A stretch of DNA of 45,624 bases from Clostridia bacterium (GCA_024404975.1 JAKSPH010000003.1:1-45624); one strand, 5' to 3'. Positions 9,141 to 30,441 are shown, counted from the stretch's first letter. Notes: generated from the letters alone by a model not told the origin. Translations and numbers: made by a program.

Positions 9141-9271
9141 TAGGGTTCCCGAAAAAACCGAAAGAACAGGGGAAAAACGGAACAAATCTTTCGGAAAATC
9201 ACGGCGGCGCTATTGACTTTTCCTTCCGTTTGTTATACCATAAAGAAAAAAGTATTTGAAAGGAAACACAT

Positions 9272-10927
9272 ATGCCCGGACTTTATACGCTTCTCACCCC
9301 CGAAAAACTTGATACCATCCGCAAAGCCCCTTTTTACCGCGAACTGCGTGAGGGAATGATCGCGCAGGCGGACGCGTTTCTCGCCGAAGCCCCCGCTTAT
9401 CTGAAATTCGCCGATCTGCACCTGTTTGCCACGACCGGAAACCGTTCCGTGTACGAAAAAACATACACGGAGCATCTCGACCGCTTGGAAAGCTACTTCG
9501 CCGTCTATCTCATCACGGAAGACGAAAAGTATCTCAACGCACTGACCGACATCGTCTGGGACGTCTGCGGTGTCGAATCCTGGTCGATCCCCGCTCACGT
9601 CAAAGAGGATCTTTCGATCGAACGCCGCCGCCGCAATCTCGACCTCGTTTCCACCCGCGTGGGAATGATCATGGCGGAGATCTATCACTTCCTCGGCGAT
9701 AAACTGCCCGATCTCGTGCGCCGCCGTATCGAATACGAAATGCGCGTGCGCATCCTCGACTCCTACTTTGCCGGTGACGAATATTGGTGGGAGTATACCA
9801 ACAACAACTGGGCTGCGGTCTGCGCCGCAAACATTTTCTGCTCGTTTATTCTGATGGGCGGAAAAGAGGAAACCGAACGCGCGATCCCCCGCCTCGAAAA
9901 GACGATCGAAGGTTTCCTTCTCGGTTTTGACGATGAGGGCTGCTGCAAGGAAGGTTACAGCTATTGGAAATACGGCTTCGGTCATTTCTGCATCTACGCC
10001 ACCGCTCTGCGTGAGTACACGGACGGAAAGATCGACTACTTCAAACTCCCCAAGATCCGTGCCATCGCCGGTTTTGAGGAATCCATCGCCATCAACGACA
10101 CGCAATGCATCTCCTTCTCGGACTGCAAACAGATCTTCGCACCGTCCATGGGACTTTCCCACTTCCTGAAAACGGAATACCCCGACCTCGGTCTGCCGAA
10201 GATGGGGCTTCCCGCCATGAAGAAGATCACCCTGTACGACCTTTTGTGGCTCAATCCCGCGCTGGAAGGTGTCAGCACGGCTTCCAAAGCCAAGGTGTTC
10301 CGCGAGAATCAATGGTTCATCTACCATTCCGAGGCGTTCAACTTCGCCTGCAAGGCGGGTTGCAACAATGAGTTCCACAACCACAACGATATCGGTTCCT
10401 TCGTCTTCTCGAAGAACGGAAAAATGACCTTCTCGGATCCCGGCGGAGGAGAATACACAAGACAGTATTTCAGTTCCGAACGGTACTCCATCCTCGCCGC
10501 TTCTTCCCGCGGACACAGCGTGCCGATCATCAACGGTCAGTATCAGGTTACGGGAACGGAAAAATCCGTGATCCTCGCCGAGGAAAAAAACCGCTACGCT
10601 TTCACGATGAAGAACGGCTATGACGTAGAGTCGCTGAACGCCCTCAACCGCGAGTTCAGAGCGGAGAAAGACGCTCTCGTCATCACCGACACTTACGACT
10701 TTGAAAAAGACCCTGACGAGGTGATCGAACGCTTCGTTTCGCTTCTCCCCATCACGGTCGACGGCGGAAAGGCGGTTTGCGGTGATTCCGAACTCGTCTT
10801 TGACACTGCCGTGTTCGATGCCTCTGTAACGACGGAGGATTTCCGTGTCGGCGTTCCGCTCTATCAGCTGAATCTCAAAGTCAAAGTTCCCGATGCAAAA
10901 ATGACACTTTCCGTGAAAGTTTGCTGA
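9272..10927 (+). CDS. Heparinase II/III-like protein (cytoplasmic oligosaccharide lyase)
   Basis: 'NNNWAAVC', 'DEGCCKEGYSYWKYG', 'HNHNDIGSF', 'DPGGGEY', 'SSRGHSVPIING' motifs; no signal peptide. Confidence 0.85.
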   Translation: MPGLYTLLTPEKLDTIRKAPFYRELREGMIAQADAFLAEAPAYLKFADLHLFATTGNRSVYEKTYTEHLDRLESYFAVYLITEDEKYLNALTDIVWDVCGVESWSIPAHVKEDLSIERRRRNLDLVSTRVGMIMAEIYHFLGDKLPDLVRRRIEYEMRVRILDSYFAGDEYWWEYTNNNWAAVCAANIFCSFILMGGKEETERAIPRLEKTIEGFLLGFDDEGCCKEGYSYWKYGFGHFCIYATALREYTDGKIDYFKLPKIRAIAGFEESIAINDTQCISFSDCKQIFAPSMGLSHFLKTEYPDLGLPKMGLPAMKKITLYDLLWLNPALEGVSTASKAKVFRENQWFIYHSEAFNFACKAGCNNEFHNHNDIGSFVFSKNGKMTFSDPGGGEYTRQYFSSERYSILAASSRGHSVPIINGQYQVTGTEKSVILAEEKNRYAFTMKNGYDVESLNALNREFRAEKDALVITDTYDFEKDPDEVIERFVSLLPITVDGGKAVCGDSELVFDTAVFDASVTTEDFRVGVPLYQLNLKVKVPDAKMTLSVKVC

Positions 10928-20232: not shown

Positions 20233-20261
20233 TTGACAAACCGTTCTTTCCTTTGTATAAT
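20233..20261 (+). promoter_or_regulatory. sigmaA promoter of the alaS leader
   Basis: Perfect TTGACA-17 nt-TATAAT. Confidence 0.85.
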
Positions 20262-20267
20262 AAACAG

Positions 20268-20540
20268 GTACGACGAAGAAGGGAAGGAGTAGCCCCTCCG
20301 ACACACCGAAGAGAGGAAACGGCGGTGAGAAGTTTCCGTGTGCAAAAGGCGAAGCAGTCCCTGAGTCCCGGGAGGAAAGCGCGAGCGAGTAAACCCCGGC
20401 GGATGCCTCCGTTACAGGGCGTGAGTCGGTTTTCGACTTTCCGAGGGATCTTTCGCGTGAGCGGGATCCGAACTTCGGTGGTAACACGAATTATTCGTCC
20501 GGAGCATAGCGTGTTTTTACGCTATGTTCCTTTTTTATTT
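20268..20540 (+). ncRNA. T-box riboswitch (Ala specifier)
   Basis: AGTAG, AGAGA and GGTGAGA stem-I motifs; GAA-GCA specifier (GCA = Ala, 20354..20356); T-box AACTTCGGTGGTAACACG; terminator CATAGCGT...ACGCTATG followed by a U tract; upstream of alaS. Confidence 0.9.
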
Positions 20541-20585
20541 GCGTATTTATTAAACATTTTCAATATATTTCGGAGGAAAACATCC

Positions 20586-23207
20586 ATGAAATGGACATCT
20601 CTCAACGATCTGCGTGAAAAGTACCTCTCCTTCTTCGAGAGTAAAGGCCATCTTCGCCTTCCCAGTTTCTCGCTGATCCCCAACAACGACAAATCCCTGC
20701 TTCTCATCAACTCCGGTATGGCGCCCATGAAGAAATTCTTTACGGGCGAGGAAGAACCGCCGAGAAGACGCGTCTGCACCTGTCAGAAGTGCATCCGTAC
20801 GCCCGACCTTGAGCGTGTCGGACACACCGCGCGCCACGGCACGTACTTCGAAATGCTCGGCAACTTCTCCTTCGGCGATTACTTCAAAAAAGAGGCGATT
20901 CCGTGGGCTTGGGAATTTCTGAACGGCGTTCTTGAAATTCCGAAAGACCTGCTTTGGCCCTCCGTCTACAAAGACGACGACGAGGCATACGCCATCTGGC
21001 GCGACGTGATCGGAATTTCCGAAGATCACATCGTAAGACTCGGCAAAGAGGATAACTTCTGGGAACACGGTTCCGGTCCCTGCGGCCCCTGCTCCGAGAT
21101 CTACTTCGACCGCGGAGAAAAATACGGCTGCGGTTCTCCCGACTGCAAACCCGGATGCGACTGCGACAGATTCATGGAGATCTGGAACAACGTATTCTCC
21201 CAGTTCAACAACGACGGAAACGGCAACTACACCGAACTCGTTCAGAAGAACATTGATACCGGTATGGGACTTGAGCGTCTTGCCTGTGTCATGCAGGGCG
21301 TCGACAACCTCTTTGAAGTCGATACCGTGCGCCGCATCCTCGACACTGTTTGCGCCATCGCCGGAAAGAAATACGGCGAAGACCGGAACGACGATATTTC
21401 CATCCGTGTCATCACCGACCACATCCGTTCCTCGACCTTCATGATCTCCGACGGCGTTATCCCCTCCAACGAGGGCAGAGGCTACGTCCTCCGCCGTATT
21501 CTCCGCCGCGCCTGCCGCCACGGAAAACTCCTCGGCATCGACCGCAAGTTCCTCACCGAACTCTGTGAGATCGTCATCAGTCAGAACGAGAACGCTTATC
21601 CCGAACTCAAGACCAAGAAAGATTACATCCTCAACGTCATCGCGCTCGAAGAAGAAAGATTCGATCAGACGATCGACTCCGGTCTTTCCATCCTCTCCGC
21701 CGTGATGGAGAACGAGGCGAAGAAGAATTCCGCCGTCATCAGCGGTGCGGATGCCTTCAAACTTTACGACACCTACGGTTTCCCCGTTGACCTCACCCGC
21801 GAGATCGCAGAGGAAAAGGGCTTCACCATCGACGAGGATAAGTTCCGCGAACTGATGGAAGAGCAGAGAACCCGCGCGAGAGCCGCAAGAGGTAACATCA
21901 GCGGTTGGACCGATACCCAGAAAACTCTCCTTGCGGGACTTCCCAAGACCGAGTTCCTCGGCTACGATGCGAACGAGTGCGAGGGAAAAGTCATCGCCAT
22001 CCTCGCAGACGGCGAAGAGATCCCCGAAGTTTCCGAAGGCGAATGCTCCGTCATCACCGATAAGACCGTGTTCTACGGCGAAGGCGGCGGACAGGTCGGC
22101 GATACCGGTGTCATCACCGCCGGCGACACGAAACTCACCGTTCTCGATACCAAAAAGACCGACGGCGTTTATATCCACCTTGTCAAAGTGGAAAACGGCA
22201 CGCTGAATAAAGGTCAGACCGTAACTCTTTCGATCGACGCCGTCCGCCGTGCCGCCATCCGCAGAAACCACACCGCAGCCCACCTCCTTCAGGCGGCGCT
22301 CCGTTCCGTCCTCGGCGCTCACGTCGAGCAGGCAGGTTCCTACGTCGATGAAAAAGAAGTCCGTTTCGACTTCTCGCACTTCAAAGCCATGACCGCGGAC
22401 GAGATCGCCGAAGTCGAAGCGATCGTTAACGAGCATATTCTCGCCGCAGAGGAATGTTCCACCACCGTTACCGATATCGAATCCGCACGCAAGATGGGTG
22501 CTATGGCACTCTTCGGTGAAAAGTACGGCGAAAAAGTCCGCGTCGTCAAAGCCGGCGTTTCCTCTCTCGAATTCTGCGGCGGTACTCACGTTTCCAACAC
22601 CGGAAACATCGGTCTGTTCAAGATCGTTTCCGAATCTTCCGTTGCCGCAGGTGTCAGAAGAATTCAGGGTACGACCGGTCTCGGTGTCCTCGCTCTGATG
22701 AACGAGAAATCCGATCTGATCGCCGAAGTCGCAAAGGAACTCAAAACCGGTAACGTCCGTGACGTTGCGAAACGTGCCGTTGCCGTTCAGGACGAGATCC
22801 GCGAACTCAAACGCGAACTCGACAGCGCAAATGCCAAGATCTCCGAAATGCAGATGGCATCCCTCCTCTCCTCCGCGAAAACCGTCGGAAAGTTCAAAGT
22901 CCTTACCGCGAAACTGAACGTGAAACCCGATGCCGCAAGAAATCTCTGCGACACCGTGAAAGCATCTCAACCCGACACCGTCGCCGTATTCGCGGCAGTA
23001 TCGGACGGCAAACTCAACTTTGTCGCGGCAGCCGGTCCCGAAGCAGTCAAGATGGGCGCACACGCAGGAAAGATCCTCGGTGAAGTCAGCGCGATCTGCG
23101 GCGGAAAAGGCGGCGGCCGTCCCGACAGTGCTATGAGCGGCGGTCGTGATCTTGACAAGATCGAAGAAGCGCTTGCCAAGGTCGAATCCATCCTCGCTTC
23201 TCTCTGA
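20586..23207 (+). CDS. alaS: Alanine--tRNA ligase
   Basis: 'NSGMAPMK', 'CQKCIRT', 'FEMLGNFSFGDYFK', 'GPCGPCSE', 'DTGMGLER', editing 'HTAAHLL...EFCGGTH', C-terminal 'GGKGGG'; GGAGG RBS before ATG 20586. Confidence 0.99.
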   Translation: MKWTSLNDLREKYLSFFESKGHLRLPSFSLIPNNDKSLLLINSGMAPMKKFFTGEEEPPRRRVCTCQKCIRTPDLERVGHTARHGTYFEMLGNFSFGDYFKKEAIPWAWEFLNGVLEIPKDLLWPSVYKDDDEAYAIWRDVIGISEDHIVRLGKEDNFWEHGSGPCGPCSEIYFDRGEKYGCGSPDCKPGCDCDRFMEIWNNVFSQFNNDGNGNYTELVQKNIDTGMGLERLACVMQGVDNLFEVDTVRRILDTVCAIAGKKYGEDRNDDISIRVITDHIRSSTFMISDGVIPSNEGRGYVLRRILRRACRHGKLLGIDRKFLTELCEIVISQNENAYPELKTKKDYILNVIALEEERFDQTIDSGLSILSAVMENEAKKNSAVISGADAFKLYDTYGFPVDLTREIAEEKGFTIDEDKFRELMEEQRTRARAARGNISGWTDTQKTLLAGLPKTEFLGYDANECEGKVIAILADGEEIPEVSEGECSVITDKTVFYGEGGGQVGDTGVITAGDTKLTVLDTKKTDGVYIHLVKVENGTLNKGQTVTLSIDAVRRAAIRRNHTAAHLLQAALRSVLGAHVEQAGSYVDEKEVRFDFSHFKAMTADEIAEVEAIVNEHILAAEECSTTVTDIESARKMGAMALFGEKYGEKVRVVKAGVSSLEFCGGTHVSNTGNIGLFKIVSESSVAAGVRRIQGTTGLGVLALMNEKSDLIAEVAKELKTGNVRDVAKRAVAVQDEIRELKRELDSANAKISEMQMASLLSSAKTVGKFKVLTAKLNVKPDAARNLCDTVKASQPDTVAVFAAVSDGKLNFVAAAGPEAVKMGAHAGKILGEVSAICGGKGGGRPDSAMSGGRDLDKIEEALAKVESILASL

Positions 23208-24613: not shown

Positions 24614-24651
24614 GGAAAGCCTCCGCCGTTACGGACGGTTTCACAGGAATT

Positions 24652-24688
24652 AAAAAACGACGGGAACGTTTGGTTCCCGCCGTTTTTG
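24652..24688. terminator. Bidirectional terminator between MATE and vWA genes
   Basis: AAAAAACGACGGGAAC-GTTTG-GTTCCCGCCGTTTTT near-perfect hairpin. Confidence 0.75.
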
Positions 24689-24745
24689 CTTTTTGTTTCG
24701 TAAAATGCGTGTATATGTAAACAATAATTTGCAGATTGGTGTCGT

Positions 24746-25333: not shown

Positions 25334-25457
25334 TTGATAATGCTCCTTTTCTTTTTGTTTTGAACGTCTTGAAATGCGCTCTCACTTCTATTATATCAGT
25401 TCCCCTGTACCAAAAATCGCCCACGGTAAATAAAAAATTGTTTTTCCAAAATAAAAA

Positions 25458-25552
25458 CCGCCATCGAAGTCGGTGTGATCCGTCTGCTCTGATCGTACAG
25501 CCGTATTTCCTCTGCGGTGTCATGGAAGTCGGAAGCGGCGTTCTGCGCGGTC
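25458..25552 (+). repeat. 95-bp non-coding duplicate of an internal MATE segment (24294..24389)
   Basis: Identical to 24294..24389 except for one deleted G (CTCTGGATC to CTCTGATC). Confidence 0.95.
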
Positions 25553-25566
25553 TCGAATCATACGTC

Positions 25567-25595
25567 TTGACAAACATAAAAGATTTTATTATAAT
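25567..25595 (+). promoter_or_regulatory. sigmaA promoter of the helicase-nuclease gene
   Basis: Perfect TTGACA-17 nt-TATAAT; GGGAGG RBS at 25621. Confidence 0.85.
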
Positions 25596-25633
25596 ATACA
25601 TTAAAGATTAGTATAATATCGGGAGGGACATTT

Positions 25634-28483
25634 ATGGATATCAGACTTTCTGATGAGCAGCAAAACTTTATCGATTTAGCTTTATCGGGAAAGAATATTT
25701 TAGTAAATGCCTGTATTGGTAGCGGAAAAACCACGGCAATTCAATGCTTGACTCAAGTCATACCAAGCAACAAATCCATTTTATACTTAACCTACAACCG
25801 TTTACTAAAGGTCGATGCAAAATCCAAGATAATGAGAAAAAATACTATGGTTACAAATTATCACGGATTTGCCAGTACTATTCTAAAACCATACGGAATA
25901 CCTAGCGGAATACCTGACTTGATTCAAACGTTTCTGAAAACACAACCTTATTTGCCGCATTATGATATCTTACTGATTGACGAGTATCAGGACATAGATC
26001 AAGAACTTTCCGAAATGTTGGAAGTGATCAAAGAATCCAACCCTTATATGCAGCTAATTGCCGTCGGCGATATGGATCAAAAAATATATGATAAAACATC
26101 CCTTGACATACGCAGTTTTATCAATTCTTTTCTCGGTCAATATGAAACACTTTCTTTTACAAAATGCTTTCGATTGAATGCCGAACACGCTGCAATGTTG
26201 GGCGAAATATGGCATAAACCTATTGTCGGAGTGAATGATACCGCTAAAGTTGAAGTAATGACGTGTGAAGAAGCCGTACAATTTTTGTCCAAACAGCAGC
26301 CTTCCGATATTCTTTGCCTCGGTGGACGAAAAGGCACTATTTTCAATAATGTACTCAATCGGTTGGAAATGGAACATCCCTCCATATTTAACAAAAAAAC
26401 TGTATGGGCAAGCATTTCCAATAAAGATGGCATGGGTTCTACCGAACCAAATCAAAACTCTGCGATTTTTACCACTTTTGATAGCAGCAAAGGGTTGGAG
26501 AGAAAAATATGTGTAGTTGCCGATTTCACCGATGACTATTGGCGTAAGAGAGCGGACCAGCCCTTTCAAAAATATGAAATATTGAGAAACATCTTTTGCG
26601 TTGCTGCCAGCAGAGGAAAAGAACACATTATATTTATTTCTCCGTCCATTGATACTGTCCATCTTCTATCAAAAGAAGTCCTCGCAATAAAGTTTGACAA
26701 AAAAGACGCAAATAAGCTCCCCATACCTATAACCGAATTGTTTGATTTCAAATATATTGAAAGTATTGAAAAATGTTATTCATTGCTTGAAATAAAAGAT
26801 GTATCTTCGGATGATTTAAGTGAGATTCCTATTAAAACAAGCGATTGTTTGATAGATCTCAGTCCTTGCGTTGGAATATATCAGGAATCCTCTTTCTTTC
26901 AAGGGTATGATTTAAAAACAGCAATCTTATTTTACGATCCTCGAATTTCCGAAGAAGAAATCGACCAAGCATCCGAGGAAGAAAAAGTCCTTATCCTCAC
27001 CGCTTTGGAAACGAAGCAAGATCGCTACAGAGTTCAAGTTGAAATTCCCTTTATTGCAGAAGAAGAAACAAAAGCACTCCATCGCAGATTGGAAACTGTT
27101 TTTTCCCGAAATGAAACTATTCAAAAATTAGTTCAATTAGACTTTGCTCCATACGGTTTCCCTTTTTTGAAAGCACGCGGATATTGCGATGTAATCAAAG
27201 ATAATATTGTCTATGAACTCAAATTCGTATCTGAACTCACGCACACGCATTTTTTGCAGTGTGCTTGCTACATGATCGGTTTAGGATTAAAAAAGGGAAT
27301 ACTTTGGAATACACGTTTCAATAAAAAATTTGAAATCCGTATTAAGGATCAAGATTTGTTTATGCTGAATGTAGCAGAAACAGTATTGAAAAAAGATCAT
27401 TTAACTGCGTCGTTTGAAGGTAAGCGGTCATCTTTAACACTCCCCCAAACAACTGTCTCGGCTTCGCCTTTCAAACTGCACGTTTCTAATGCCTTTTCGC
27501 ACCATTTCGCCGTTCTTGATGTTGAAACCACACTTGCGGGGAATGTTATGTCTGTCGGTCTTGTTATTGCAGATAAACACAGTTTTAATCAAGTGGATCA
27601 ATTATATTTGGTTTCCGAACCGGAATGCACCGAAAACAGTATGTTTCGTTCTGCTCTTTGGCTTCCGAATACGCCGAGAGCAATTATGACTAACAAGCAG
27701 GCGTTAGGGGAGCATATTTCCCGTCTTCTTAATCAGTATGGAGTGCATGAGATTTGTGCATATAATGCCGGGTTTGATCAGCGTGCGTTACCTTGCTTGA
27801 ACAATTTTTTTTGGATTGATATAATGAAAATTGCACCATACAAACAATTCAACTCAAAAATCCCGGATTCCGCAGAATGTTGCTCAACAGGAAGGCTCAA
27901 GACCAAATATAAGGCACAAGATATGATTCACCTACTGACCGGTAATCTCGCTTATTCCGAATCTCACAACGCTTTCCGGGATGCTCAAGATGAGTTACTG
28001 ATTATGCAAAAATTGAACTTGCCTTTTGAAATCTATGTTCAACACGGATCACTTGGGCTTAAGTCATCTTCGCCATCCTTTGGAAGTAGCAAGTCTGTTC
28101 TATATAATAAAACGGAAAATCCGATTATCCGGCAAAATCAACCAAAACCTTTTGTTTCTCAATCTCAATTTTCTGGTTTTGCCTCCGATAAGCCAATTGC
28201 CCAAACTGTAACGGCAAGCAGTTTTTCTCCGGATTTGTATTATGGATTTGATGAAACCGCTCACCTCTTGGGGCAAAGGCGAACGGACATTCATCGTTAT
28301 ATTGATGAAGGGAAACTACAAGCAATCCAAAAATGGAATAGGATTTATATCACAAAAGAATCGGCAAACAAATTAAAAGACGAGCTTGACCAAATGAACG
28401 AGGAAGCAATGAAGATCTATAGAATAATCTTCGGAATGATCTTTCTCATGATATTGCTGTTTTGTTTTTTATCAGGATGTTAA
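25634..28483 (+). CDS. Multidomain SF1 (UvrD-like) helicase + PD-(D/E)xK nuclease + DEDDh 3'-5' exonuclease + HTH + C-terminal TM
   Basis: ACIGSGKTT, LLIDEYQD, AVGDMDQKIY, CFRL, TFDSSKGLE, VAASRGK; GYCDVIKDNIVYELK...QCACY; VLDVETT / YNAGFD / HNAFRD; YYGFDETAHLLG...IDEGKLQA; IIFGMIFLMILLFCFL; markedly AT-rich. Confidence 0.85.
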   Translation: MDIRLSDEQQNFIDLALSGKNILVNACIGSGKTTAIQCLTQVIPSNKSILYLTYNRLLKVDAKSKIMRKNTMVTNYHGFASTILKPYGIPSGIPDLIQTFLKTQPYLPHYDILLIDEYQDIDQELSEMLEVIKESNPYMQLIAVGDMDQKIYDKTSLDIRSFINSFLGQYETLSFTKCFRLNAEHAAMLGEIWHKPIVGVNDTAKVEVMTCEEAVQFLSKQQPSDILCLGGRKGTIFNNVLNRLEMEHPSIFNKKTVWASISNKDGMGSTEPNQNSAIFTTFDSSKGLERKICVVADFTDDYWRKRADQPFQKYEILRNIFCVAASRGKEHIIFISPSIDTVHLLSKEVLAIKFDKKDANKLPIPITELFDFKYIESIEKCYSLLEIKDVSSDDLSEIPIKTSDCLIDLSPCVGIYQESSFFQGYDLKTAILFYDPRISEEEIDQASEEEKVLILTALETKQDRYRVQVEIPFIAEEETKALHRRLETVFSRNETIQKLVQLDFAPYGFPFLKARGYCDVIKDNIVYELKFVSELTHTHFLQCACYMIGLGLKKGILWNTRFNKKFEIRIKDQDLFMLNVAETVLKKDHLTASFEGKRSSLTLPQTTVSASPFKLHVSNAFSHHFAVLDVETTLAGNVMSVGLVIADKHSFNQVDQLYLVSEPECTENSMFRSALWLPNTPRAIMTNKQALGEHISRLLNQYGVHEICAYNAGFDQRALPCLNNFFWIDIMKIAPYKQFNSKIPDSAECCSTGRLKTKYKAQDMIHLLTGNLAYSESHNAFRDAQDELLIMQKLNLPFEIYVQHGSLGLKSSSPSFGSSKSVLYNKTENPIIRQNQPKPFVSQSQFSGFASDKPIAQTVTASSFSPDLYYGFDETAHLLGQRRTDIHRYIDEGKLQAIQKWNRIYITKESANKLKDELDQMNEEAMKIYRIIFGMIFLMILLFCFLSGC

Positions 28484-28487
28484 AACA

Positions 28488-28515
28488 ACCCCCGCCTCGG
28501 AACCGAGGCGGGGGT
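28488..28515. terminator. Strong hairpin terminator between convergent genes
   Basis: ACCCCCGCCTCGG-AA-CCGAGGCGGGGGT perfect 13-bp stem. Confidence 0.8.
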
Positions 28516-28533
28516 GCTGTTTCTGAAGAGGGA

Positions 28534-30441
28534 TCATTTCCTGTAGGCGAGTTTGCCCGATTTTTCAAGCAGTTTGATGAACAGGCCGCCCTGGACGGTT
28601 CTGTGCTGGAAGCCGACCTTTCCGCCGGTAACCGTGTCGTACCAATCGGTCATCGGGACGTGAGAGAAGGACTCATCGTAAGTGCGCCAGAGCGGAGCGA
28701 TGAACTTCTCGAAATCGCCTTTCGTTTTCGCCATGGTCGCCGTCCAGACGAGCCAGTCGGACTTGGTGTTGTCCGCTCTGGAATCGAGCGGCAAGCCGTA
28801 TCTGTTCATCTTTGCGAAATAACTTGCGATCTCGCTTTCCACGACCTCGGCAGGGAACAGACCGGTACCCCAGATCTTATCCCAAACCATATTGTATTTC
28901 ATGGAGAAGGAATCGGGTTTATCAAACGCGAGGCGGTAGGAACCGTCGCCGTTCGCGGCACGGGCGACCCAACTCTGCGCTTTTTCTTTGGCGATGGCGG
29001 CGAATTTCTCCGCTTCGTCCTTCTTTCCGAGTTTGTCGCAGAGAACGGAAGTTCCCATAATGCCCATGATGGCTTTGAGCGAGAGGTTGCAGTTGTGCGC
29101 GAGGTGTCCGGCGAAATCGTCGGTGCAGAGTTGGTTTTCGGGATCGTCCCCGAAGCGGATGAGGTATTCCGTCCAACCGAGAAGGGTGTCGAAATGAGAT
29201 TTCGGGAAGTCGGTTTTTCCGTCGGCAAGAACGGCGGTGGCTTCCATAATGATCATATTTCCGCATTCCTCCACGGGCATCTGCATTTCATAACGGAGTT
29301 TTCCGGTCGCTCTGTCAAGACCGTAGACCTGACCGTTGACGAGAGGATACTGTCCGGCATCGTGAGGCGCAAAGTCAAATTCCCACGCGGGCGACGCGGC
29401 GAACTTGTAGATCGGACGCATCATGGCGCGGACGAGTTCGGGGTTGTACCGCAGGAAGATCGGGATCGAGGGATAGGAAACGTCCACCGTGGCGGCACAG
29501 CCGTTCGAGAAACATTCCTTGGAAATGTAGAGGAGATCGCCGGCTTCGTCGCGGACGAGTTTTGCCGCCGCAAGGATCTGACGGTAAGCGAGGTTCAGAA
29601 GATCTGCGTATTTCTTTCCGCCGGCGGCGACCGCCTCGGCATAGAGTTCCGCGGAGAACTTGTCGGCGCGGGAAACGAGAGTTTCATATTCTTCGTTTGC
29701 CGCGGTGATGGCGCAGCGAATGCATTTTCCGCCGTCGCGCCACGGGCTGACAAGGTTTTTACCGAAATACTGTATGGATTCCACGTCGTCGTAGGCGAGG
29801 AGAACAAGCCCCGGTTCTCCGGCGGCGAGATTCTTTTCGACTCTGATCATGTGAGCGCCGGCTTCGGTGCGGGTTTCACCGCGCATACCGAGGTAAAGAT
29901 ATCCCCAATCAATACGGAGATCGTCGCCCGAACGGTTCAGCACGTTTTGTTCCTCGGCGCCCATCTTCAAACCGGAAACACCGCCGACACGGAACTCTTC
30001 CGTGACGATCGGCTTCTGTCCTTTACTGTTCAGAACCAACGTGTCTTCCGCGGACACGGAAAGAGAAACTTCGTGCGCCTTACCGTCCGTCGGCTCCCAT
30101 CTGACTTCCATATAGGAAACGGGGCGGGAGAGGAGGTTCACGTCATCGAGGAAAAGCGGTGTCATCATACGGACGGACGCGCGGATGCCGAAGCCCTCAA
30201 ACACGGCTTTGGTGGAGAGAGCGTCGATGTCAAGCGAAATCTGCTCAAATTTTCTCATGTTTCTGTCAAAACCGAGGAAAGCGGCGTTGACACCGTCGAC
30301 ACGCATCGCACCGAGAACGTAATTGCGGGCGCCCGTCCAATGCATAGGAACGTCCGCGTTCAGTCGGGTGTATTTCGACCAAACGGAAAAATAAGGATCT
30401 ACAGTAAATAAAGGAACTGCGGGGGCGCGGAACTTTCTCAT
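28534..30441 (-). CDS. Glutaminase A (GtaA)-like six-hairpin protein (DUF5127/DUF4965/DUF1793 type)
   Basis: 'RAPAVPLFTVDPYFSVWS', 'RIDWGYLY', 'SKECFSNG..ATVDVSYP', 'FAPHDAGQYP', 'MPVEECGNM', 'NQLCTDDFAG', 'GLPLDSR', 'KSDW'. Confidence 0.85.
   Translation of the reverse strand: MRKFRAPAVPLFTVDPYFSVWSKYTRLNADVPMHWTGARNYVLGAMRVDGVNAAFLGFDRNMRKFEQISLDIDALSTKAVFEGFGIRASVRMMTPLFLDDVNLLSRPVSYMEVRWEPTDGKAHEVSLSVSAEDTLVLNSKGQKPIVTEEFRVGGVSGLKMGAEEQNVLNRSGDDLRIDWGYLYLGMRGETRTEAGAHMIRVEKNLAAGEPGLVLLAYDDVESIQYFGKNLVSPWRDGGKCIRCAITAANEEYETLVSRADKFSAELYAEAVAAGGKKYADLLNLAYRQILAAAKLVRDEAGDLLYISKECFSNGCAATVDVSYPSIPIFLRYNPELVRAMMRPIYKFAASPAWEFDFAPHDAGQYPLVNGQVYGLDRATGKLRYEMQMPVEECGNMIIMEATAVLADGKTDFPKSHFDTLLGWTEYLIRFGDDPENQLCTDDFAGHLAHNCNLSLKAIMGIMGTSVLCDKLGKKDEAEKFAAIAKEKAQSWVARAANGDGSYRLAFDKPDSFSMKYNMVWDKIWGTGLFPAEVVESEIASYFAKMNRYGLPLDSRADNTKSDWLVWTATMAKTKGDFEKFIAPLWRTYDESFSHVPMTDWYDTVTGGKVGFQHRTVQGGLFIKLLEKSGKLAYRK

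Follow-up and report, generated by a model that had tools for sequence, protein, structure and literature searches.

What does a lone gene that joins a helicase to two nucleases and ends in a hydrophobic tail do for the bacterium that carries it? The gene in question lies on a contig of a Clostridia bacterium (GCA_024404975.1 JAKSPH010000003.1:1-45624), of which the whole stretch of 45,624 nucleotides (nt) that was analysed is called the window here, and it encodes a protein of 949 amino acids (aa) that we call P0001. An earlier reading of this DNA (the original prediction) had proposed a membrane-anchored, single-gene defence against phages and plasmids. Our favoured answer is that P0001 may be a horizontally acquired, single-protein nucleic-acid defence system, and judging from its sequence and that of its relatives we put the probability of this at about 0.5. 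A defence role of any mode seems rather likely, and the specific proposal that the enzyme is confined to the membrane and directly degrades entering DNA is more tentative, lying somewhere between doubtful and evenly balanced. Helicase-nucleases recur in bacterial immunity, as RecBCD, Cas3, Gabija, Hachiman, Nhi and Hna. P0001 would be a helicase-nuclease defence candidate with membrane anchoring, a variant on this known theme, and, since its large and unstudied family often adjoins known anti-virus genes, it probably represents a new type of immune protein in bacteria. That a nuclease can spare self DNA by being confined to the membrane was shown only recently, for SNIPE (PMC13190303). If our reading is true, the P0001 family unites the helicase-nuclease and membrane confinement in one polypeptide, and adds a second nuclease.

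The original prediction had divided the protein into a helicase, two nuclease domains, a helix-turn-helix (HTH) domain and a hydrophobic tail, and each of these parts was recovered. The gene and its domains are as follows:

25634..28483, plus strand: open reading frame (ORF) of P0001, 949 aa, an intact and uninterrupted reading frame; best homologues at E = 1e-271
25634..26668, plus strand: compact UvrD-like superfamily 1 (SF1) helicase, residues 1-345, from Pfam, PHROG and motifs
26831..27403, plus strand: PD-(D/E)xK nuclease domain, residues 400-590, with D519, E528, K530, Q542 and Y546
27497..28039, plus strand: DEDDh (DnaQ/PolC-exo-like) 3'-5' exonuclease domain, residues 622-802, from motifs and profiles
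28040..28237, plus strand: Ser/Pro/Gln-rich linker, residues 803-868, from the translation; unconserved in an alignment of 51 family members (A1)
28238..28360, plus strand: probable HTH_17 helix-turn-helix domain, residues 869-909, from Pfam HTH_17 (PF12728)
28412..28480, plus strand: predicted C-terminal hydrophobic tail anchor, residues 927-949, from Kyte-Doolittle hydropathy

With best homologues at so low an E-value, the family match is well past chance. The N-terminal part carries the motifs of an SF1 helicase in the translation, GSGKT (29-33), DEYQD (116-120), GDMDQ (145-149), KGLE (286-289) and AASRG (324-328), all at the places where they had been noted. Both Pfam AAA_19 (49.9 bits, 4.6e-13, cut-off 25.1) and Pfam UvrD-helicase (41.4 bits, 1.8e-10, cut-off 23) score above their cut-offs, and together the motifs and the Pfam scores place P0001 in the SF1 UvrD/Rep-like superfamily. 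Pfam found no UvrD_C domain in P0001, and PHROG 1967, annotated as 'DNA helicase', matches at 1.6e-28. In A1, no member departs from the Walker A, DEYQD, GD..Q, KG.E or SRG motifs. DEYQD and GD..Q.IY also resemble the consensus motifs of UvrD, RecB and AddA, and from the likeness of the motifs 3'-5' translocation and ATP-dependent unwinding are predicted; the substrates are likewise extrapolated.

The RecB/Cas4-like nuclease that had been proposed downstream of the helicase stands on similar ground. Its motif reads D519-x8-E528-L-K530, followed by Q542 and Y546 (nt 27188-27271), and these five residues are invariant in A1. Pfam PDDEXK_3, which covers residues 520-564, gives 21.9 bits in P0001 against a cut-off of 22, and homologues pass it with 26.6-29.7 bits; by its triad within this profile match, P0001 is predicted to belong to the PD-(D/E)xK superfamily. 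Among representative proteins that have the nuclease region, the D-E-K triad is kept in 110 of 133, divided into 32 of 32 with the DEDDh type found in P0001 and 78 of 101 without it. Sequence searches of the PDB with the whole protein, with the A1 profile and with a nuclease sub-alignment (A3) returned nothing significant, and the best but weak PDB-profile match was AddA. The ESM Atlas model of P0001 has a pTM of 0.56. What is conserved across the family is the helicase plus PD-(D/E)xK core, from residue 1 to ~590, and many relatives of ~600 aa consist of this core only.

The third enzymatic part is the DEDDh exonuclease, with the motifs D629-V-E631, YNAGFD (710-715) and HNAFRD (778-783) at nt 27518-27982. 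Residues D629, E631, N711, H778 and D783 are invariant in the 51 aligned members, and D715 is kept in at least 90% of them. The PADLOC DEDDh model matches residues 627-785 at 8.4e-6. When this domain was aligned with relatives of the stand-alone and split forms (sub-alignment A2) and compared with the PDB, it matched the PolC-type exonuclease 2p1j at 1.7e-17, a score that may have been raised by one classical RNase_T protein (from locus L068) in A2. Weaker matches are to DnaQ, ExoX and epsilon (1e-7 to 1e-4) and to Cas2-DEDDh chains (1e-4). ExoI, ExoII and ExoIII motifs are therefore all present together with a profile match to a solved exonuclease, which bears out the assignment as DnaQ-like. 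The exonuclease is linked to the core in three forms: fused at the C-terminus, as in P0001; as an RNase_T-type domain at the N-terminus (P0133, P0203, P0214 and P0241); or encoded by an adjacent gene (G438, L066 and L069). This recurrence as a C-terminal fusion, an N-terminal fusion or an adjacent gene suggests a functional coupling between exonuclease and core, as does the D-E-K triad kept by all 32 representatives with this DEDDh type. The domain also occurs as stand-alone ORFs of 182-221 aa (L009-L014 and L151-L153) that are 39-44% identical to residues ~620-805; their contexts are ordinary and hold no defence genes, as judged by Pfam for L151-L153, and give no pointer to function.

Beyond the exonuclease, the C-terminal module pairs an HTH domain with a hydrophobic tail. 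HTH_17 falls under its cut-off of 27 in P0001, where the full-length sequence scores 22.1 bits (1.9e-4) and the C-terminus taken by itself 26.0 bits (1.1e-5), and relatives pass it clearly, as in the L032 homologue at 45.4 bits. The highest 19-residue Kyte-Doolittle mean of the protein, 2.72, is reached at residue 931 of 949, so that by hydropathy P0001 has the hallmark of a tail anchor, one hydrophobic helix of ~20 residues at the extreme C-terminus. The two elements travel together. PF12728 is found in 29 of the 120 best listed homologues, and within the 120 best matches a hydrophobic tail of ~20 residues ends all 30 HTH-bearing proteins (these 29 plus the query) and none of the 90 others. 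The spacing is constant, with the HTH followed by 10-25 mostly charged residues, the tail, and then 0-6 residues. A homologue from Mycoplasmopsis agalactiae likewise ends in a hydrophobic tail. More broadly, the C-termini of 148 DEDDh-fused proteins comprise 38 that are tail-anchored, 61 that end directly after the exonuclease, 9 with Zn-ribbon-like CxxC pairs, 22 with basic, amphipathic-looking tails (a class assigned by a crude ad hoc pattern) and 18 others. A FastTree phylogeny of the DEDDh-fused proteins spreads the tail-anchored forms over a basal grade and nests Zn-ribbon clades among them, and a derived clade of 76 (support 1.0) is without the tail; P0001 itself falls in a clade of 14 (support 0.991) whose members are all tail-anchored. 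This pattern suggests that the HTH and tail module is old in the DEDDh clade and has been repeatedly lost or replaced. Among representatives, a tail anchor is present in 10 of 30 from the DEDDh clade and in 1 of 101 others.

The distribution of the family is that of an accessory gene. A word-indexed search that scored 7,999 candidates found 1,545 relatives, the best of which are 44-53% identical, and when all representatives clustered at 50% identity were searched, 2,588 proteins matched at E <= 1e-3 and 257 at E <= 1e-30. The few named relatives are all labelled 'AAA family ATPase'. Close to the host, none of 40 relatives has the gene (24 from the same genus and 16 from the same order). A sample of the class, with 399 scored genomes and two further genomes that could not be scored, holds it at full length only in the host genome (G000), and 6 others have a stand-alone DEDDh ORF only, 192-238 aa long. 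Elsewhere, the gene occurs in 9 of 301 genomes in the family of a Lachnospiraceae metagenome-assembled genome (G438), where 6 copies are near full length, 1 is split, 1 is a fragment and 1 is broken, and in 0 of 400 other genomes sampled from the same phylum. The Mycoplasmopsis family has it in 16 of 151 genomes, some of which hold 2-4 copies of the core-only form. Because the gene is of low guanine-plus-cytosine (GC) content, is absent from all 40 relatives and is patchily distributed, we regard it as accessory and horizontally transferred. The original prediction had named vertical inheritance as a core repair gene as the outcome that would speak against it; what we find is a patchy distribution with presence/absence polymorphism within species.

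As for novelty, none of the models in PADLOC v2.0.0 is specific to the P0001 family, which agrees with what had been anticipated for a new system. A full-text search of the literature found no paper on this architecture, although the supplementary tables of defence-discovery papers may list it. The earlier view that the architecture is unrecognised therefore holds as far as the literature is concerned; it does not extend to the window being its sole bearer, since the HTH and tail module recurs in other proteins.

The gene also has the appearance of a self-contained unit. Its signals, the boundaries of the proposed cassette and its neighbours are as follows:

25567..25595, plus strand: promoter TTGACA-17-TATAAT, sigma-70/SigA-type, 12/12 consensus positions
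25622..25628, plus strand: ribosome-binding site GGGAGGG, 6 nt before the ATG, read from the sequence
28488..28515, no strand assigned: GC-rich hairpin with a terminator score on both strands, 12 pairs of which 10 are G-C
25456..28549, no strand assigned: single-gene cassette of ~3.1 kb, from a metagenome contig joint, boundaries +/-30 nt
Neighbours: alaS and a MatE gene upstream (plus strand), a small VWA gene (minus strand), then GtaA-like and HtrA-like genes (minus strand)

The span given in the original prediction, 25567 to 28515, runs from the -35 hexamer to the end of the hairpin. A promoter scan found 11 sites, of which one (25567-25595) is perfect, against 9.1 +/- 3.0 sites in the shuffled region. 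The hairpin at 28488-28515 separates P0001 from the convergent GtaA-like gene, and the gene is monocistronic, with its own promoter and its own terminator. GC content is 0.37-0.40 at 26-28 kb, within the ORF, compared with 0.50-0.60 in most other 1-kb bins and ~0.54 in the flanks. These results agree with the earlier description of an AT-rich, monocistronic gene with a consensus promoter and a terminator of its own, and the absence of mobility genes nearby was also confirmed among the 17 ORFs scanned from 17.4 to 34.8 kb. By contrast, the idea that it is inserted among core genes did not hold: the GtaA-like neighbour (glutaminase A six-hairpin, 28534-30441, minus strand) is itself accessory, being found in just 12 of 61 genus genomes with a best match of 62% identity.

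Public gut and faecal metagenomes provide a view of the locus in other populations. Contigs from run X1 cover P0001 in full, and one contig from run X4 ceases to follow the window beyond 25445. A contig of run X2 connects 25455 with 28550 and skips 3094 bases, though it is the single contig with this joint and has only 30 letters on the shorter side, a depth of 4.36 and 90% likeness, which tempers the case. Together, the X2 joint, the full cover in X1 and the departure in X4 point to a single-gene cassette that is polymorphic between conspecific populations, present in some and absent in others. Runs X4 and X6 also have no contig cover over 25433-28513 despite covered flanks; such non-cover was not counted as evidence. 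Around the cassette, no convincing bounding direct or inverted repeats were seen. An empty site could not be recognised in genomes of the genus, where there is no synteny and neighbours are only 48-62% identical, so that the genus is too divergent to compare.

If P0001 is a defence gene, its relatives might be expected near other defence genes, and we compared 12 DEDDh-bearing loci (the window, L002, L003, L031-L034, L036-L038, L066 and L069). Recognised or candidate defence genes lie close by in 4 of the 12, and 2 are in dense islands; these PADLOC neighbour matches are raw counts, from which the background rate for random neighbours is not subtracted. Directly upstream of the L066 homologue are five ORFs longer than 100 aa, which encode HsdR (2e-46), HamA (8e-134), HamB (E = 0), a GmrSD-like and an Mrr-like protein. 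Upstream in L069 are a serine recombinase, a 1,045-aa SIR2-APAZ/pAgo fusion (E = 0), a 694-aa caspase-like protein and ParE/RelB. L031 has PDC-S01 (1e-161) ~1.1 kb upstream and an adjacent PIN gene, and L033 has PDC-M42A (8e-40) directly downstream and three serine recombinases upstream. Core-only relatives have comparable company: L035 adjoins AbiEi and PDC-S22, L116 adjoins a type II restriction-modification pair, a TIR protein and a DarG-like ORF, and L068 is near an NsnA-like gene.

On the other hand, a number of observations weigh against a defence function. No recognisable defence neighbour is present at 6 of the 12 loci (the window, L002, L034, L036, L037 and L038), and at two more the hints are weak, namely C-5 methylase fragments ~5 kb away in L003 and, ~3 kb away in L032, a DUF4238 protein, of a kind described in defence, for which PADLOC gave no match. 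The neighbours submitted to PADLOC were 56 without an obvious housekeeping Pfam match (52 of 131 ORFs, 2 from L003 and 2 from the window), and the PDC models that they matched are themselves untested defence candidates. The membrane localisation of P0001 is a prediction, with insertion read from hydropathy alone. In addition, the core is common on mobile elements. It is found on 2 actinobacterial plasmids, of Gordonia and Rhodococcus, with 35-36% identity over residues 3-589, and on 101 IMG/VR contigs with core-only relatives at 45-55% identity over residues 5-590; it occurs in settings resembling integrative and conjugative elements (ICEs) or plasmids, with TraX, YodL, sortase, VWA and TnpB, and on one contig that bears a major head protein. 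Some core relatives have an N-terminal fusion to DUF5710, and inteins interrupt P0231 and P0262. These mobile settings, fusions and inteins would fit a role in replication or recombination. The proposal of a defence system is therefore upheld by the patchy distribution, the polymorphism and the association with defence neighbours, and is weakened by how common the core is on mobile elements and by the half of the loci that have no defence neighbour; the expectation that homologues gather in defence islands is likewise borne out in part only.

The mobile settings raise the first of three other explanations, that the gene serves the replication, recombination or maintenance of mobile elements and that P0001 is a RecB-like helicase-nuclease of a plasmid, ICE or phage, stranded as a lone chromosomal cassette. 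We consider this unlikely as an account of P0001 itself, although the mobile settings suggest that the family as a whole probably arose as a helicase-nuclease of mobile elements. Besides the plasmid, IMG/VR and head-protein contexts, the match to PHROG 1967, the presence of phage and giant-virus helicase clusters among the ESM Atlas neighbours of P0001, and the 2-4 copies in some Mycoplasma-family genomes are in keeping with such a role. The plasmid copies of Gordonia and Rhodococcus adjoin topoisomerase and HTH genes, and Toprim_Crpt genes also stand beside core-only relatives. In Acinetobacter, plasmid initiators of the Rep_3 type bear DUF5710 as a fusion partner (PMC11233732). However, the 17 ORFs scanned around P0001 include no integrase, transposase, replication or transfer gene, and the polymorphic unit is a single gene. 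INPHARED phage genomes gave no match. The tail anchor is nearly limited to the DEDDh clade, and the catalytic Glu of the PD-(D/E)xK nuclease is replaced in mobile-element variants (L074, L109, L116, L129 and L141) and kept in all DEDDh-bearing forms, so the two groups may differ in function. Defence genes also often ride mobile elements, which makes a mobile context compatible with defence.

Defence could also take the form of abortive infection, by an auto-inhibited and possibly membrane-sequestered enzyme that a phage cue such as single-stranded DNA-binding protein (SSB) or DNA ends triggers into indiscriminate DNA degradation. The neighbour association favours this as much as direct defence, and toxin-antitoxin modules (PIN, ParE/RelB and AbiEi) adjoin relatives. 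Hna offers a precedent with the same helicase plus PD-(D/E)xK layout and release by SSB (PMC13381803). The sequence indicates no sensor domain in P0001, and the constant HTH and tail-anchor module suggests localisation over allosteric triggering; sequence alone does not separate the abortive from the direct mode, and we hold abortive infection to be somewhat less probable again than a mobile-element function. Least probable in our view is an accessory enzyme of repair, recombination or DNA uptake, in which a RecB/AddA-like end processor with a proofreading-type exonuclease would act at the membrane on transforming or damaged DNA. The domain order is that of RecB/AddA, AddA is the best, if weak, NCBIfam match, and the L036 homologue adjoins a 3-methyladenine glycosylase gene. 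Homologues are present in Mycoplasma-family genomes, which are not known to have RecBCD/AddAB. Fusions of a helicase to DEDDh, such as ExoDinG, are regarded as repair proteins (PMC11981726). Yet P0001 is far under every NCBIfam equivalog cut-off (for example 30 against 708 bits for AddA), some relatives are in defence islands, and the gene is patchy and varies in presence within species, unlike repair genes. The host genome also already has an AddA-like gene of its own (G000 C1:30404-34003, a 1,248-aa open frame with 580 + 124 bits to addA_Gpos), so that P0001 is not needed as the cell's end-processing enzyme.

Returning to direct defence, the domains suggest how P0001 might work. The UvrD-like (SF1A-type) motor would load on free ends or single-stranded regions of invading DNA, track 3'-5' along one strand from the end and, by analogy with RecB/AddA, feed the unwound DNA to the PD-(D/E)xK nuclease, and the DEDDh domain could then digest the 3'-ended strand, whether displaced or trimmed. 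Because the HTH_17 domain is ~20 residues from the tail anchor, the HTH and tail module would keep the whole cytoplasmic enzyme on the inner side of the membrane. An enzyme so anchored might meet DNA as it is injected or transferred and be kept off the chromosome. Both the defence phenotype and a spatial distinction of self from non-self are what this model would predict. At its fullest, the picture is of a tail-anchored, ATP-driven 'mini-RecBCD' with two nucleases that processively destroys phage, plasmid or transforming DNA at entry, tells self by location and not by sequence or modification, is retuned in evolution by swaps of its C-terminal localisation module, and was recruited from a mobile-element helicase-nuclease. 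We offer this complete version with clear reservation, as the less probable outcome.

Comparison with known systems shows where P0001 departs from each. It shares with RecB/AddA an N-terminal UvrD-like SF1 motor followed by a PD-(D/E)xK nuclease, and differs in that its core is ~590 aa rather than ~1200, in its added DEDDh exonuclease, HTH and tail anchor, and in being accessory, not core. Membership as a RecB/AddA equivalog was rejected, with the best and still weak NCBIfam match, addA_Gpos, at 30.1 bits against a cut-off of 707.65 and recB at 17.3 against 696. No AddB, RecC or RecD partner gene is adjacent; P0001 is flanked by a VWA and a GtaA-like gene, both on the opposite strand. The nuclease has the D..ExK..Q...Y motifs of Cas4 and RecB, whereas Cas4's Fe-S signature of four Cys was not recognised in P0001. 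The exonuclease resembles CRISPR-associated DEDDh proteins, from which the PADLOC 'DEDDh' model was built, and has a weak Cas2-DEDDh match in the PDB. Neither a CRISPR array nor a cas gene was seen near P0001 among the window ORFs that were scanned.

Gabija provides the best PADLOC matches, with GajB models down to 1.6e-15, and GajB is likewise a UvrD-type helicase, but one without nuclease domains. A Gabija assignment was rejected, since GajB matches only short motif stretches (for example residues 103-153) and there is no adjacent GajA (OLD/TOPRIM). When the nuclease, exonuclease and C-terminal pieces were compared separately with PADLOC at 1e-6, only the DEDDh model was found, and the nuclease piece matched none. 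The Hna and Nhi models are not among the best 25 of the 41 PADLOC matches to P0001. In Nhi, the nuclease comes first in the domain order. Its likeness to P0001 is that of a single multifunctional nuclease-helicase, one that degrades phage DNA regardless of sequence (PMC11084316). Hna is closer in plan, as a stand-alone defence gene whose single polypeptide has an N-terminal helicase and a C-terminal PD-(D/E)xK nuclease; its description presents an auto-inhibited 3'-5' ssDNA (single-stranded DNA) exonuclease that is released by phage SSB and leads to abortive infection, and gives it no DEDDh, HTH or membrane tail (PMC13381803). The helicase motifs of Hna are of superfamily 2 (SF2), in contrast to the SF1/UvrD-like motifs of P0001.

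A precedent for the concept is SNIPE, a nuclease anchored in the membrane that cleaves phage DNA while it is being injected, is toxic once its membrane domain is removed, and has homologues that exchange membrane-targeting modules (PMC13190303). As is predicted for P0001, a single polypeptide brings together the anchor, a domain that binds DNA and a nuclease facing the cytoplasm, and the membrane-targeting module is variable (PMC13190303). They share no homology: SNIPE is built of an N-terminal transmembrane segment, DUF4041 and GIY-YIG, and P0001 has a C-terminal tail anchor, HTH_17, PD-(D/E)xK and DEDDh nucleases and an ATP-driven helicase. Neither DUF4041 nor GIY-YIG is among the Pfam matches of P0001 at E <= 1, and membership was rejected. 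By analogy, the variable C-termini of the P0001 family may parallel the module swapping of SNIPE in an unrelated protein. WRN is another helicase-nuclease fusion of a similar kind. ExoDinG and EndoDinG likewise fuse a helicase to a DEDDh 3'-5' exonuclease or a PD-(D/E)xK nuclease; they are SF2 helicases with an N-terminal nuclease, one nuclease rather than two, and are treated as repair proteins (PMC11981726; PMC12345164).

Members of the family abound among gut Firmicutes and Mycoplasma-family genomes, where few defence systems have been tested, and its modular C-terminus provides a natural experiment on localisation controlling autoimmunity. If it acts in defence, phage therapy against these organisms and their genetic manipulation would both be hindered by it. 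If it does not, it is still a widespread and unstudied family of mobile-element helicase-nucleases.

Several details of the relatives and of the window deserve mention in their own right. Four of the variants that have lost the catalytic Glu (L074, L109, L116 and L129) carry, in place of DEDDh, a C-terminal extension of ~315 aa, which in L074 and L116 has no Pfam or PADLOC match. In L116, the DarG-like ORF is a 207-aa macrodomain protein (9190-9813, 3.4e-13) directly upstream of the core-only homologue, whose nuclease Glu is changed to Cys. The inteins of P0231 and P0262 are insertions inside the helicase domain; both match LAGLIDADG_3, and P0231 also matches Hom_end_hint. The pAgo fusion, caspase-like and ParE/RelB genes of L069 (2723-7983) are just upstream of a split pair consisting of the helicase-nuclease and the DEDDh protein. 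QueD is found a few kb from the homologue in L031 (12211-13311, with QueE) and on the Gordonia plasmid pGKT2 (L008 4412-4957), which could be a coincidence or a tie to 7-deazaguanine DNA modification. Within the window, the alaS ORF (20253-23207, plus strand) begins at TTG and its Pfam tRNA-synt_2c match starts from residue 120, and translation probably begins further downstream. A stretch of ~47 nt at 24651-24700, which separates MatE from VWA, is 94% identical to G000:C66:7145-7193, and metagenome contigs show excess summed depth and many loose ends at this place, which is probably a short dispersed repeat.

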